IMG/VR virus record: IMGVR_UViG_3300033485_000002
Span: 64,001 to 128,000 of that record
Length of the DNA: 64,000 bases
Source: a virus
Reading direction: 5' to 3' (one strand)
Positions 4,940 through 33,404 of the stretch are shown piece by piece; the stretch's first letter is position 1, and each line of letters starts with the position of its first letter. The translations under genes and the position numbers were made by a program. Under the pieces are notes generated by a model. The model was not told where the DNA came from. It made no database searches and saw only the letters and a list, made by a program, of their open reading frames with translations.

Positions 4940-6193
4940 ATGGCTAATCTTACTCCCATCTACGATCACAATTGCACGCTCTGCCCCTTACATAAAGTGC
5001 CGGGGGTTACTTGTTTGTCCGGGATCGGCAACCTGGACGACCCGAGCATCCTTATAGTGGGGGATGGGCCGTCGAAGCAGGAGGTGCTGCTTGGTCGGGC
5101 GTTCGGCGATGAGCGGGGTAGGCTGCTCGCTCAGTCGCTCGATGAGATCGGTTTCCCCATCGGGCCTAAAGGCGATGTGTTTGCTACCTACGCCGTTAAG
5201 TGCTTCCCGTCTGGTAAGGTAAAGGTTAAGGATGCCAAGATTTGCGCGGCGAAGTATCTCAACCAGGAGATCGACCTTTTCCGCCCGAAGTTGGTTATAG
5301 CGCTGGGTAAAACCGCCCAATATGCCGTCTTGGGTAGTACTGCACCTATCTCTAAAACTAGGGGCAAGCTGTTCCCCTTAGTTCGTACCGACGCAGCAGG
5401 AAATGAGTGGACAACCCAGGTCATGCCGGTGGATCATCCATTCTCTATCCTCACCACACCGGCCAAGCTGGACCCGTGGCTCGCTGATCTGCGGCGGGCT
5501 AAGGCGGTGTTTTATGGCGACGGAAATCCTTACTGGTCGCCGGAGAAGCTGGAGCGGTTTGACTTTAAAGTGATTGATTCTATCGCGCAGTTCAAAGCAG
5601 TTGCACGGGAGCTTATTGCCAAGCACAGGGGCGAGTACCTAGCTATCGACATTGAAGCTAGTGGTGTTGATGAGGCTATGAACGATGATGACTTTCGGGT
5701 TTTCAGCTTGCAGTTCGGGCTTATAGATTTGGAGGGGCGCGAGGAACATCCGGTCTACTTCCTACCCATCCAGTCGGCGGGGTTCCCGTGGACATCTGAG
5801 GCTAAGTGGCTGGATAATACCGCCCGCCTGCTGAATCGGTTTCTGAGCACGGACTACTTCAAGCTGGTGGGGCATAACCTAAAGTACGATTTGAAAGCGC
5901 TTAGACGGATTGGTGTAACTGAAGCATATGCCGTCTATGACACGCTGATGGCATGGTCAATTGCACATGGTGAAGCACCGTTGTCTCTGAAAACAATTGC
6001 TTACGAGGTTAGTGATTTAGGTGGGTACGAAGTCCTTATGGATCAGTACTTTAAGGAGCACGGTACTTATGACGCCCCCCCCGAAATTCTAATCTCGTAC
6101 AGTTGCCTTGATGTTGTGCTTGTGCGCTACCTTTTTAGTGAGCTGTACAAAACGATCCTTCAAGAGAAAAAGCGTGTTAACATTGGAGTATGA
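4940..6193 (+). CDS. Uracil-DNA glycosylase family 4-like domain fused to DnaQ-like 3'-5' exonuclease (N-terminal half of split DNA polymerase A)
   Basis: CTLCPLH, IVGDGP, AVKCFP...C, LVIALG and HP motifs (UDG-4); ExoI DIEASG, ExoII GHNLKYD, ExoIII YSCLD. Confidence 0.85.
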   Translation: MANLTPIYDHNCTLCPLHKVPGVTCLSGIGNLDDPSILIVGDGPSKQEVLLGRAFGDERGRLLAQSLDEIGFPIGPKGDVFATYAVKCFPSGKVKVKDAKICAAKYLNQEIDLFRPKLVIALGKTAQYAVLGSTAPISKTRGKLFPLVRTDAAGNEWTTQVMPVDHPFSILTTPAKLDPWLADLRRAKAVFYGDGNPYWSPEKLERFDFKVIDSIAQFKAVARELIAKHRGEYLAIDIEASGVDEAMNDDDFRVFSLQFGLIDLEGREEHPVYFLPIQSAGFPWTSEAKWLDNTARLLNRFLSTDYFKLVGHNLKYDLKALRRIGVTEAYAVYDTLMAWSIAHGEAPLSLKTIAYEVSDLGGYEVLMDQYFKEHGTYDAPPEILISYSCLDVVLVRYLFSELYKTILQEKKRVNIGV

Positions 6194-6197
6194 GCTA

Positions 6198-6267
6198 TTG
6201 TCATGGCTGGGTGCGGTGTGGCGAGGCCAGGTAGGGTATGGCATGGTGTGGCTCGGCAAGGCAGGGG
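6198..6267 (+). ncRNA. Orphan gapped-guide (VIPR-like) unit: TTGTC-AT followed by 12 perfect GGY-NN pentamers
   Basis: ggc tg/ggt gc/ggt gt/ggc ga/ggc ca/ggt ag/ggt at/ggc at/ggt gt/ggc tc/ggc aa/ggc ag; same TGTC handle as the array at 32.75-33.4 kb. Confidence 0.75.
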
Positions 6268-6293
6268 AGCCTCGGTTTAGTAAGGGGGTCTAA

Positions 6294-7778
6294 ATGATTC
6301 GGTTCCATTCGGATGCCGAAGGCGGTAGTCCTCGGTGGCTGTGTGATTATCAGTCTCTATTGGTCAATGCTTTTGTCGATATTGAGAGCTGCGGTTTTCC
6401 TTTCGATCCTATTCAACATGCACAGTTTATCGAGAATGCCGAACGTACTTATGCCGAGTACGAACGGCGATTGATGACCAGCCCCCAACTGCAAGCCTAC
6501 ATCCAGCAGAAGGGGCTGCCCGCTACGGGTAAACGGGCGTTTAACCTGTCCTCGGCCACCCAACTCCAGGAGTTCCTCTTCAGCCCGCGTAGTTCAGGGG
6601 GCCTGGAGCTTGTACCCGTAAAGCGCTCTAAGCTGACGGATAAGGCTAGTTCCGACCGAGAGTCCTTGCAGCATTTCGCTCAGGCAGGCAACGCTTTCTG
6701 CTCGGATCTATTGGTGTTACGGAATTTCGGTAAGCTATTGTCGTCGTTTGGTGAGCCGCTCTTAAAGTTCTACTGTCCTCGCACCGGAGCAGTTCACCCG
6801 ACCTACTTCCTGGCCAAGGTGACAGATAGTGCTGGGGTTGCAGGCGGTACTGCGACCGGACGGCTGTCGTGCAAGCACCCCAACATGCAGCAGCTACCGA
6901 AGCGGGATAAAGATGACAAGGGAATTGGGCTGGCGGGGATCGACGTGCGGAAGTCCTTCGTGCCGTTTCCGGGCCACATCCTTATAGAGTGCGACCAGAG
7001 CCAGATCGAGGTGCGGGTCGCCGGGATGTACGCTAAGGATACGACGATGGGTAAGTTCTTCGATGAGGGGGGAGACTTCCACATCCGGGTGGCCTCTCAG
7101 GTGTTCCAACAGGATTTCGATCATATGGTCGAGGTGTTGGCGAATGAGCACCATCCCGAGTACAAGAAGTTCAAGCAATTCCGTACTGCCGCTAAAACCT
7201 TTACCTTTGGTCTGATGTTCGGTATGGGGTTGAATAAGCTGACCAGACAATCCGGGTTGACTGAGGCTGAAGGTAAAGCTTTTATCGATGAGTACTTTGC
7301 TACTTTCCCTCAGTTCGCTTCGTGGCGTGAGGAGATGATTGATTGGGCTACCGAGCACGGATGGGTCCAAACCTTATTCGGGCGTAAAAGAACCATAAAG
7401 ATTAGCGGCTATGAAACGGAGGATGGTCGGGAGGAACGCATTGGCATCAACACTCCGATTCAGAGTGCGGCGGCAGATATTACTCTGTTTGCGCTCAGCC
7501 GGTTGTGGGAGTTCTTGAAGGCCAACGGTTACGGGGCAAAGATTCTTGGCACGGTCCATGACTCTATTATCTTCTCGGTGCCCTACGAGGAGTTCGAGGA
7601 GCTATTACCGGAGATAGCCCGGAGGATGATCCGTCCACCTGGGCTGGAGTGGCTTTTGGATGACGTGCCGATTCCCCTGTCGATTGGCATTGAGGCGGGG
7701 CCTAACCTCAAGGATATGCACAAGTTAGACCTCGATGACGTGCTGACCTGCTCCCTCGACGTAAAGGATTATCTATGA
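6294..7778 (+). CDS. polA: DNA polymerase family A, polymerase domain
   Basis: TATGRLSCKHPNMQQLP, motif A DQSQIEVR, motif B RTAAKTFTFGLMFG, NTPIQSAAAD, motif C TVHDS. Confidence 0.95.
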   Translation: MIRFHSDAEGGSPRWLCDYQSLLVNAFVDIESCGFPFDPIQHAQFIENAERTYAEYERRLMTSPQLQAYIQQKGLPATGKRAFNLSSATQLQEFLFSPRSSGGLELVPVKRSKLTDKASSDRESLQHFAQAGNAFCSDLLVLRNFGKLLSSFGEPLLKFYCPRTGAVHPTYFLAKVTDSAGVAGGTATGRLSCKHPNMQQLPKRDKDDKGIGLAGIDVRKSFVPFPGHILIECDQSQIEVRVAGMYAKDTTMGKFFDEGGDFHIRVASQVFQQDFDHMVEVLANEHHPEYKKFKQFRTAAKTFTFGLMFGMGLNKLTRQSGLTEAEGKAFIDEYFATFPQFASWREEMIDWATEHGWVQTLFGRKRTIKISGYETEDGREERIGINTPIQSAAADITLFALSRLWEFLKANGYGAKILGTVHDSIIFSVPYEEFEELLPEIARRMIRPPGLEWLLDDVPIPLSIGIEAGPNLKDMHKLDLDDVLTCSLDVKDYL

Positions 7779-31330: not shown

Positions 31331-31406
31331 GGGCCGTTAGCTCAGTTGGTAGAGCATTTGTCTTACACGCAAGTGGTCGCTGGTTCAAGTCCAGCACGGC
31401 CCACCA
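31331..31406 (+). tRNA. tRNA-Val(TAC)
   Basis: GGGCCGT/ACGGCCC acceptor stem, CT-TAC-AC loop, GTTCAAGTC T-arm, encoded CCA. Confidence 0.95.
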
Positions 31407-31476: not shown

Positions 31477-32259
31477 ATGGTACGTAAGAAGAAAGAAGCG
31501 GTCGCCGAAAACGAAGAGATCCAGGTGTTTAAGGTCGAAAGGGGGGAAGTGTCGTACTGTGTTTTGGGTCTTACTCCACTGATCACGGAAGCGATGAGCG
31601 AGAAGGTGAAGCGGGAGCTGTTGCTGCCCAAGGGCCGTAAGACCGCTGCCGACAAGGCGGGCACGGCCAAGCACGATGTGCTGGAGGAGTACCGCAACAG
31701 CACCTATCAGGCGAAGGACGATACGTCTCCGACTCGGATCGTGATTCCGTCTACTGCCTTCAAGGGTGCGCTCAGGGACGTGGCGACCGATATCCCCGGT
31801 GCCGCAAAGGCGCAGATCGGTCGGTTGGCGTTTGTTAAGGGCTACCATATCCCCGTGTTCGGGGTGCCGCAGCTCATCATGTCGGTGGTTCGTAACTCGG
31901 ACCAGAACCATACTCCTGACATTAGGACTCGGGCGATCCTGCCTCGGTGGGCCTGCTATCTCACGATCGAGTACACGATCCCGCTGTTGAATGATGTTGT
32001 CGTGACCAACCTGCTGGCCGCTGCTGGCCTGATGCGGGGTATTGGTGGTTGGCGTCCGCAGAAGGGGGCTGGTGACTTCGGGCAGTTCACGCTCGTTGAC
32101 CAGGACAACCCCGAGTTCTTGGACATCGTTGCCACTGGTGGGCGTGAGCCGCAGGATCTGGCGCTGGCCGATCCTGAGTGTTTCGATAGCGAGACGGTGA
32201 ACATGCTGTCGTGGTTCATGGCGGAAACCAAGCGGCGTGGTCTCAAGGTTGTGAGCTAG
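31477..32259 (+). CDS. Cas7/RAMP-like (Vipr-like) RNA-guided effector protein
   Basis: RAMP hallmarks: G.TPL in the first strand, IPSTAFKGALRD, C-terminal G-rich loop AG..RGIGGWRPQKG.G.FGQF; directly upstream of the pentamer array. Confidence 0.8.
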   Translation: MVRKKKEAVAENEEIQVFKVERGEVSYCVLGLTPLITEAMSEKVKRELLLPKGRKTAADKAGTAKHDVLEEYRNSTYQAKDDTSPTRIVIPSTAFKGALRDVATDIPGAAKAQIGRLAFVKGYHIPVFGVPQLIMSVVRNSDQNHTPDIRTRAILPRWACYLTIEYTIPLLNDVVVTNLLAAAGLMRGIGGWRPQKGAGDFGQFTLVDQDNPEFLDIVATGGREPQDLALADPECFDSETVNMLSWFMAETKRRGLKVVS

Positions 32260-32267
32260 GAGGAATA

Positions 32268-32747
32268 ATGGAACACGAGCGGACGAAGATCATTCGGGAA
32301 GAGCTGATCCGCCTTGAGAACTCGCTGGGGACGTTGACCCCGGACAAGGTGGTCGAAGCAGCTACTCCTGTGAAGAGTCCAATCCACCCTTGCTTCGATT
32401 GGGACAATACCTCGGCAGGGCACAAGTACCGATTGGAGCAGGCGCGTGGTCTTATCCAGTCGGTGAAGTACCGGGTTACGACCGAGAAGAAGGTGTTTAC
32501 GGTGGCTCGGTATGTGCGTGACCCGAGGGTGGACCCTCAAACGCAGGGGTATGTCTCGGTGCCGAAGCTGAAGGAAGATCCTGCTGCGGCCCTGAAGGCG
32601 GTACAGTGGGAGTTTTCCAGAGTGCAGCAGGCACTGGAGCGTTTGGAGATCTTGGCCACGGTGCTGGAAGCCAAGTCGGTGGTTACGGCAGCCCGTAAGC
32701 ACATGAAGCGGGTGCAGGCTAAGGTGGAAAAGTCTTTTGCGATCTAG
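32268..32747 (+). CDS. Accessory protein of the Cas7-like locus (159 aa)
   Basis: GGAGG RBS; LTP..VV.AA....SPIHPCFDWD...A..YRLEQAR.LI motif; lies between effector and array. Confidence 0.75.
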   Translation: MEHERTKIIREELIRLENSLGTLTPDKVVEAATPVKSPIHPCFDWDNTSAGHKYRLEQARGLIQSVKYRVTTEKKVFTVARYVRDPRVDPQTQGYVSVPKLKEDPAAALKAVQWEFSRVQQALERLEILATVLEAKSVVTAARKHMKRVQAKVEKSFAI

Positions 32748-32752
32748 CCGAC

Positions 32753-33404
32753 ATTGTCACGGTTTAGCTGTCAAGGTACGATCGGGATTGTTCGGGTTTG
32801 TCAAGGAAAGTCAAGATCTGGCGCGGTCGGGTGAGGCTGTCGTGGTTCGGTCAGATCCGTTCAGGGATGTTAGGGAAAGATATGGTGTGTTCTGGTGGGG
32901 GAAGATTCGGATGGGCAAGGTGAGGCTGTCCAGGTAAGGTTCGGTGGGATGGGGCGTGTTACGGCGACTTAGGGTTAGTCATGGGCAGGTTCGGCTGTCA
33001 CGGTATGGCACGTTAGTTTCGGGTTAGTCAAGGACGGGAACGGTGCGATCAGGTCTGATCCGGTCTGACTGTCACGGTACGTGTCGTAGGGTAGGAAAAG
33101 GCAAGGCTCAGCATGTTAGGGTTCGGTGAGGCTAGGCTGTCACGGTGTCGTGAGGATGGGACCGGCAGGGCCGGGTTCGTTGCTGGCGTGGCATATTTTG
33201 GCGGGGCTTGGCTGTCATGGTGATTTTTGCGTTCAGGCGTGATTGGGCCTGACAGGATTCGATTAGGCAGGGCCGGGTAAGGTTTGGCTGTCACGGTGGG
33301 ATATGGACGGATCCGGAAGGGAGAGATGCGTTCTGGCGGGGTCTGGTGGGGCTGGGTGAGACCGGGTGGGACGAGATTTGGTAAGATCCGGTCAGGTCTG
33401 ACTG
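32753..33404 (+). ncRNA. Gapped-guide (VIPR-like) array: 8 units of (G/A)(G/A)CTGTC-NN handle plus G-led pentamers
   Basis: Handles at 32766, 32835, 32924, 32993, 33067, 33135, 33210 and 33286 (spacings 69, 89, 69, 74, 68, 75, 76, i.e. 9+5n with small indels); 5-nt periodic G between handles. Confidence 0.85.

Follow-up and report, generated by a model that had tools for sequence, protein, structure and literature searches.

Introduction

Why does a large uncultured phage carry a run of perfectly phased GGY-NN pentamers in the short gap between two of its replication genes? The run lies in a 64,000-nucleotide stretch of phage DNA (the window: positions 64,001 to 128,000 of the IMG/VR record IMGVR_UViG_3300033485_000002, numbered here from its first base), between a gene for a UDG-family protein with a 3'-5' exonuclease domain (exo) and the gene for a PolA-family polymerase (pol).

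A frame for this question is given by VIPR, a silencing system akin to CRISPR whose first description dates from 2026 (bioRxiv 10.64898/2026.04.26.720920 and 10.64898/2026.04.26.720927). In the available text of these two preprints, Vipr proteins are phage-encoded RAMP-fold relatives of Cas7 that polymerise on a vrRNA of 9-16 GGY/NN repeats, each repeat taking one protomer. Through its NN pairs the vrRNA reads double-stranded DNA on either strand, with one base skipped per pair (NNxNNx...), and in natural targets the skipped base is usually the codon wobble position. Binding of Vipr silences transcription, and silencing is abolished when the NN pairing is disturbed. The same text gives a threshold of 80% NN match for a target, and reports no self-target at or above 80%. 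As far as the available text of the three 2026 VIPR preprints goes, the targets of vrRNAs are mostly satellites and prophages, including a satellite recombinase, and experiments to date have covered two clades, in E. coli and Pseudomonas. Solo vrRNAs, defined in the available text of a further preprint as having no Vipr within 20 kb (bioRxiv 10.64898/2026.10.15.759431), are a kind of guide that is already published.

Results

A perfect GGY-NN tract occupies most of the exo-pol gap

The tract and its immediate neighbours are as follows.

4940..6193, + strand: UDG-family and 3'-5' exonuclease gene (exo), 417 aa, upstream of the tract (Pfam PF03167, E 3.9e-20; PF01612, E 1.7e-11)
6197..6204, + strand: lead-in ATTGTCAT (ATTGTC at 6197-6202, AT at 6203-6204), containing the TGTCAY boundary motif common to the array units
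6205..6264, + strand: twelve perfect GGY-NN pentamers with the guide dinucleotides TG GC GT GA CA AG AT AT GT TC AA AG
6265..6269, + strand: 13th pentamer GGGAG, third base not a pyrimidine; end of the tract
6282..6296, + strand: ribosome-binding site AAGGGGG and ATG of the polymerase gene, 13 nt past the tract, assigned from the sequence
6294..7778, + strand: catalytic gene of the PolA-family polymerase (pol), 494 aa (Pfam PF00476, E 2.8e-74)

The exo gene ends with a TGA at 6191-6193 and the pol ATG begins at 6294, leaving a gap of exactly 100 nt, as a first-pass annotation of the window had it, and the tract takes up most of this gap. From the lead-in through the first units the tract opens with ATTGTCATGG. 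The make-up described in that annotation, ATTGTC-AT followed by twelve perfect GGY-NN pentamers, was confirmed on the + strand at 6197-6264, and the accompanying list of NN pairs (AT TG GC GT GA CA AG AT AT GT TC AA AG) is correct. The tract is thus real, but the limits of 6198-6267 given for it were inexact, with the start one base off and the end falling inside the 13th pentamer. As the AY after TGTC is constant it was counted as part of a handle, and the guide was taken as twelve units. Ten different dinucleotides occur among the twelve NN pairs. That the units are not identical argues against slippage, which would yield identical units.

With the base composition used for the estimate (G=0.308, C+T=0.453, giving P(GGY)=0.043), twelve in-phase GGY have a chance of approximately 4e-17 per site. 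Approximately 5e-12 such runs are expected in the window on both strands, which excludes a chance origin. A whole-genome scan for tracts of this kind, proposed in the first-pass annotation, found a perfect 12/12 only at 6205-6264. Elsewhere in the 168 kb, this genome-wide GG scan at period 5 showed in-phase enrichment only in the main array described below and in one weak G-run that lies outside the window; every enrichment was on the + strand. The weak G-rich run (G000:C1:46760-46805, approximately 17.2 kb before the window start) can be read as seven GGNNN units, only the last four of which are GGY. It has no TGTCAY lead-in and is probably not a guide. An identical tract is present in L032, a second, independent assembly of the same phage.

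No RNA structure or tail was found in the gap (fold z-score of -0.64 against shuffles), neither tract nor gap matched an Rfam family, and the 3' flank of the tract has no sequence in common with the array units. Between exo and pol, no promoter-like or terminator-like site was found next to the tract. In the polymerase frame, a 61-aa ORF with a TTG start (window 6108-6293) runs across the tract up to a TAA that directly precedes the pol ATG; it shows no sign of being a gene and is a side effect of the G-rich repeat.

The genome holds a VIPR locus

The main array of the phage, approximately 25 kb from the tract, lies behind two genes.

31477..32259, + strand: vipr-like gene, 260 aa, with a Cas7-fold model; homologue loci are flanked by GGYNN arrays
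32268..32747, + strand: vap-like partner gene, 159 aa, with 42% identity to the 160-aa gene that follows a vipr homologue in contig L016
32753..33411, + strand: main pentamer array of approximately 10 units with TGTC-NN boundaries, running straight into a tRNA-Leu gene

The vipr-like protein has more than 1272 metagenomic homologues, none of them named. In a PDB fold search with its AF2 (AlphaFold) model (pLDDT 79.7), the best among the matches listed were Cas7-family RAMP complexes (Csm, Cmr, type VII and Cas7-11) with E ~1e-5, and the matches include Csm3, Cmr4, type VII Cas7 and Cas7-11 subunits. At three homologue loci, GGC/GGY (GGYNN) pentamer arrays are found on both sides of the vipr homologue. 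The 160-aa partner gene also stands directly after the vipr homologue in contigs L014 and L015, and the 159-aa vap-like protein has no Pfam match. The presence of a Cas7-fold gene, a partner gene and an array indicates that the genome holds a VIPR locus, and the product of the vipr-like gene is the presumed effector that loads the tract. A tblastn search of a phage collection with the 260-aa protein gave matches only in Mycobacterium and Gordonia phages, and SUSP1 was absent from the 30 matching records.

The array is approximately 650 nt long and its first unit reads ATTGTCACGG. Its units are parted by a 4-nt register break (...GGC-TG / TCAY / GGY-NN...), and 7 of the 10 boundaries have the sequence TGTCA[C/T]GG. 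Both tract and array open with ATTGTCAYGG, and the internal array units with GGCTGTCAYGG, all on the + strand. The first-pass annotation had remarked that the ATTGTC lead-in also starts the main array, where we find it at 32753-32758. Approximately six such 8-mers are expected by chance per genome strand, making it unlikely that one should stand in register right before the tract.

The pentamers of the array are less regular than those of the tract, GGY accounting for 46-58% of pentamers in the four in-register array units and for 100% in the tract. The non-GGY array pentamers are mostly G-led (GAT, GTT, GGA and GAC), with CTT and TTT as exceptions, and GGY falls within this looser set. Array units reach 16-23 pentamers, and are longer and looser than published vrRNAs. 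Because the pentamers of the array are so much looser than GGY, it is less than certain that the same Vipr serves both tract and array. The order at the locus is vipr-like gene, vap-like gene, array, tRNA-Leu and tRNA-Lys, with a tRNA-Val (31331-31406) just upstream of vipr. The array adjoins the tRNA-Leu (33412), and RNase P could set the last 3' end of the array.

Set beside the published description of vrRNAs as 9-16 tandem GGY/NN pentamers, the tract has 12 perfect units plus GGGAG, and the genome has a RAMP-fold Vipr candidate in the 260-aa ORF with its Cas7/Csm3/Cmr4 matches. The tract start (6205) is 25.2 kb from vipr (31477), beyond the 20 kb of the solo definition. The suggestion of the first-pass annotation that guides can be dispersed is supported by this distance from a Cas7-fold vipr-like gene, together with the array-type strand and the TGTCAY lead-in. 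Taken together, these sequence features make it very probable that the tract is a solo guide, that is, a candidate vrRNA gene of the phage's own VIPR system.

The exo-pol junction is a variable slot

The exo gene has 30 relatives with 44-70% identity. Seven related contigs were examined, which represent six phages, since L011 and L026 carry an identical exo site and were counted as one. Exo and pol are separate genes in each of the seven, and in none is there a tract at the exo-pol junction. An ORF of 142-149 aa sits between exo and pol in L008 (genome G001), L010, L011 and L026, and a 65-aa ORF in L028; the two genes abut in L027 and in the P0122 contig, the closest relative (70% identity). 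The ORFs located at the junction are the following.

L008:3551-4000: junction ORF
L011:2595-3023: junction ORF
L026:5092-5520: junction ORF
L028:5187-5384: junction ORF

The product of the 142-149-aa ORF is predicted to be a membrane protein and has a Cys-x-Cys-x-x-Cys motif in its C-terminal part, and no Pfam family was found for the junction ORFs of the relatives. A homing endonuclease was considered for the junction ORF and rejected, as the ORF falls into no Pfam family and its product resembles a small membrane protein.

A comparison of related polA loci had been suggested in the first-pass annotation, together with the idea that insertion of the tract caused the polymerase to be split. 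The locus is split in all of the relatives and the tract is present in none, which refutes the causal idea: seven related contigs have the split with no tract there. Since the split is seen in relatives without the tract, it is an ancestral state, and the junction is a site of variable insertion that holds the membrane-protein ORF, the 65-aa ORF, nothing, or the guide tract.

In L010 (contig Ga0164313_10202513, 1638-1676) at least seven GGYNN units follow directly after the pol stop, truncated where the contig ends. They form a second solo tract in the replication module, at a junction other than exo-pol, and indicate that solo tracts recur in the replication module of this lineage. In G001, the sole near-whole-genome relative (81% complete), neither vipr nor any tract was found.

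The best match of the guide is an exo site in related phages

Targets were sought under the 1-nt-skip rule by counting, on either strand, how many of the informative NNxNN... positions agree, with a maximum of 24 for the 12-unit guide. In the phage's own genome and in each relative tested, the top match fell on one homologous exo site, the codons of the ExoIII motif, in antisense and with the skipped base on codon position 3. The scores at this site were as follows.

Own genome: 18/24
G001 (L008): 19/24
L011 = L026: 20/24 (83%)
L027: 18/24
L028: 17/24

Second-best matches in the tested loci scored 14-16/24. Shuffled guides were run against a 372-kb database of the own genome, G001 and the relatives' loci, which is small and partly built around this locus. 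A score of at least 20/24 was reached by 2 of 1000 base-shuffled guides, by 1 of 1000 unit-permuted guides and by 1 of 1000 position-specific shuffles, and the reversed guide scored 16/24 in the same 372 kb. The p of ~0.001-0.002 that these shuffles give for the exo match is good but not overwhelming. Five control guides (four from the main array, and the L010 tract) scored no higher than their own shuffles, and in the search for targets of the four main-array guides and the seven-unit L010 guide all matches were within the null range. In L028, pol motif B matched the L010 tract at 12/14, and this match was discarded, the homologous sites in other relatives scoring only 9-10/14.

Decoded in antisense the guide gives L-[F/L]-[D/E]-T-[I/M]-[I/M]-L-[C/W]-S-T-A-[H/Q], and the exo family consensus at the site is x-W-D-T-M-M-L-W-[A/S]-N-x-H. 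No match above 20/24 was found in the sampled sequences and, judged from their proteins, 30 of the 30 relatives cannot exceed 20. The guide therefore has a candidate target at or above 80% NN with a self-match below 80%, as for published vrRNAs, although marginally so, with no match above 83%. On these matches we lean towards the exo gene of sister phages as the predicted target of the tract.

The first-pass annotation had instead decoded the tract on the sense strand to the integrase motif WAVExxxIxxNP. This decoding is mechanically correct, but the integrase reading finds no support, as the last residue fails (AG gives R/S, not P), and the significant match of the guide is antisense, to the ExoIII motif in homologues of the adjacent gene and not to an integrase. 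Pattern scans of viral and genome collections were also made, which demand exact matches. With the full 13-unit pattern and 9- and 10-unit sub-patterns, the skip-rule scans of IMG/VR viral contigs and of 185,579 species genomes gave nothing real. The core pattern with unit 3 left free had no match in the viral contigs and three chance matches in the genome contigs. The single partial match from the scans, in L013, was rejected since its further extension agreed at 3 of 8 positions, the chance level.

The phage's own exo copy is interrupted in the matched core

The corresponding site in the phage's own exo gene is the following.

5933..5967, - strand: own near-target, ExoIII-motif codons VYDTLMAWSIAH; 18/24 read positions, skipped bases at codon position 3

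This is the best site for the 12-unit guide in the whole 168-kb genome, and lies 235 bp from the guide gene. Self-targeting was considered and rejected, the best own-genome score being within the range of shuffled guides. The own match of 75% is below the published 80% threshold and the 83% of L011/L026 is above it. At the site the own exo peptide reads V-Y-D-T-L-M-A-W-S-I-A-H. In the own copy no more than 2 perfect units follow one another, compared with 6-7 in the relatives, covering the D-T-M-M-L-W codons.

Residues L336 and A338 of the own exo depart from the family in columns with a conservation of at least 90%, and both departures are unique. Such columns number 117; the own exo deviates in 10 of them, and 2 of these deviations fall in the footprint's four conserved columns (p=0.036). 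Judged from protein sequences, the possible totals of the 30 relatives run from 12 to 20, which places the own total of 18 at about the median. As own and rival totals overlap, the contrast between self and rival rests on the interrupted core and not on the total score. The core divergence of the own copy, as read from the sequences, is suggestive of such a contrast and not decisive, and that it is adaptive self-avoidance we consider somewhat less likely than not.

Alternative explanations

The tract may be a functional solo vrRNA with its true target in some unsampled element, for example the recombinase of a satellite or prophage, in which case the match to exo would be coincidental. Published vrRNAs, in the available text of the VIPR preprints, do mostly aim at satellites and prophages, a satellite recombinase among them, and with the host and its satellites outside the data searched and the best exo match at only 83%, such a target has some appeal. 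However, the exact scans of IMG/VR and of the 185,579 species genomes gave nothing real for either the full guide or the sub-guides, the partial match in L013 extends at chance level, and the sense peptide leaves the proposed integrase motif incomplete. The exo match, for its part, has a p of ~0.001-0.002 and the wobble register that is expected, and is found again and again at the homologous site across five genomes. We consider an unsampled target unlikely, if the most serious of the alternatives.

Action in cis or on self is less probable again. Here Vipr bound to the GGY tract would tune pol translation or mRNA processing, or the guide would partly repress its own exo-pol genes as a timing switch. 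Relatives express exo-pol without any tract, and the own site matches at 75%, its core holding mismatches; the available text of the VIPR papers reports no self-target at or above 80%, and the loss of silencing when NN pairing is disturbed. These points weigh against a position that would otherwise suit such a role, with the tract ending 13 nt before the pol ribosome-binding site, in an operon whose genes are not parted by any promoter-like or terminator-like site, and the best own-genome match 235 bp away. The least probable alternative, and a very improbable one, is that there is no working guide, the tract being a repeat that has decayed or merely hitch-hikes, a result of slippage, or a G-rich element forming a G-quadruplex or R-loop. 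Although the tract is without a tail and quadruplexes of two tetrads are conceivable for (GGNNN)n, GGY is kept in 12 of 12 units while NN varies, the signature of selection on a scaffold; the lead-in is common to tract and array, and the skip-rule match is significant and in the correct codon register. Two first readings of the tract, as an operator for a ring-shaped TRAP-like RNA-binding protein and as a G-quadruplex or R-loop element, were dropped, since VIPR together with the Cas7-fold gene explains the GGY/NN period and the strand bias.

Discussion

A possible mechanism

The reading that we prefer, in which the tract is a vrRNA and its target the exo gene of sister phages, stands at about an even chance when both parts are taken jointly. 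It would operate as follows. The tract would be transcribed together with the exo-pol operon, as we infer from the lack of a promoter or terminator next to it, and the 5' end of the guide RNA would be set at the TGTCAY lead-in, as between array units. Approximately 12 Vipr protomers from the gene at 31477-32259 would coat the guide RNA, one per GGY, and the NN pairs would read, in antisense, the codons ...D-T-M-M-L-W-S-x-A-H, which in the exo gene of sister phages make up the segment with the ExoIII catalytic motif. Going by the VIPR papers, R-loop-triplex binding and transcriptional silencing would follow. In a co-infection, the exo gene of the rival would be shut down by the complex, and with it, through polarity, the polymerase gene downstream. 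In the phage's own copy, M336L and L338A would break the matched core. As this copy lies 235 bp from the guide gene and its core is broken, guide and resistant allele would be inherited together. Support for the preferred reading also comes from co-occurrence, in that G001, the near-whole relative, is without vipr and also without the tract.

That a solo guide is kept beside a resistant allele of its own target as a linked 'weapon plus immunity' cassette is a more speculative proposal, and we offer it as a possibility with some doubt. If true, the guide and the M336L/L338A exo allele would exclude sister phages by silencing their replication operon and would spread by recombination as one unit, an RNA-guided analogue of the marker exclusion by homing endonucleases, with variable intergenic junctions such as exo-pol as landing sites.

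Marker exclusion is known from the free-standing homing endonuclease genes (seg/mob) of T-even phages. The likeness to the tract is that of a weapon gene wedged between conserved essential genes that hits the rival's allele of the neighbouring gene, with the linked own allele resistant, and of a cassette that spreads or excludes rivals in co-infections. The seg/mob products are, however, protein nucleases that cut DNA and so lead to gene conversion, whereas here an RNA guide would act with a silencing complex encoded 25 kb off, and our reading of the tract implies neither cleavage nor conversion.

Comparison with published VIPR systems

Solo vrRNAs, in the available text of the preprint that describes them (bioRxiv 10.64898/2026.10.15.759431), resemble the tract in several respects. 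They too are GGYNN guides apart from vipr (25.2 kb here, more than 20 kb by the rule) and have a lower self-match than rival match, and those of SUSP1-family phages and F5 satellites are likewise used in conflict between close relatives, a use that for the tract is predicted. They differ in their setting, the published solos lying in VIPR-null phages at a former VIPR locus or in satellites, whereas the tract is in a VIPR-positive phage with a Vipr of another clade. The published solos also keep a conserved tail of approximately 40 nt, in place of which the tract has a short 5' lead-in, and they target vipr genes, other vrRNAs, satellites and host REP elements, whereas the predicted target of the tract is a core replication gene. 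Unlike the solos described in that text, the tract is inside a replication operon, and the adjacent gene is the phage's own diverged copy of the predicted target.

The type II VIPR system of SUSP1, as far as the available text describes it, shares with this phage a RAMP-fold effector, a small partner gene and GGY/NN vrRNAs, and shares with the tract 1-nt-skip targets on either DNA strand with the skipped base on the wobble position. Type II guides are separate and have pseudoknot tails, whereas the array here is continuous with 4-nt register breaks (TCAY), resembling the 'staggered arrays' of other VIPR types in the available text of the first VIPR paper; a further difference is that about half of the array pentamers here (in the four in-register units) are not GGY. 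The hallmark of type II, an invariant structured 3' tail (pseudoknot), is not found in the tract, and with no conserved 3' tail or significant fold (z -0.64) the tract is not a type II (SUSP1-like) vrRNA.

The locus thus extends solo guides to a large uncultured phage and a different Vipr clade, to a placement inside an essential replication operon, and, for the predicted target, to the catalytic motif in the proofreading exonuclease of a rival. An arrangement in which a guide neighbours a diverged version of what it targets is not described in the available text of the VIPR papers. If this arrangement is true, it would offer a simple rule to predict the targets of solo guides and would explain their scatter through phage genomes. 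It would also mean RNA-guided exclusion between sister phages that acts on core genes, with escape through the recoding of conserved motifs.

The second assembly of the phage also bears on the size of the genome. In L032 (JGI 3300009167, 167,635 bp, range 159973-167151) the exo-pol locus is near the end, and in this record it is at approximately 69-72 kb. The two are circular permutations, which suggests that the genome may be complete at approximately 168 kb despite a completeness estimate of 77%.
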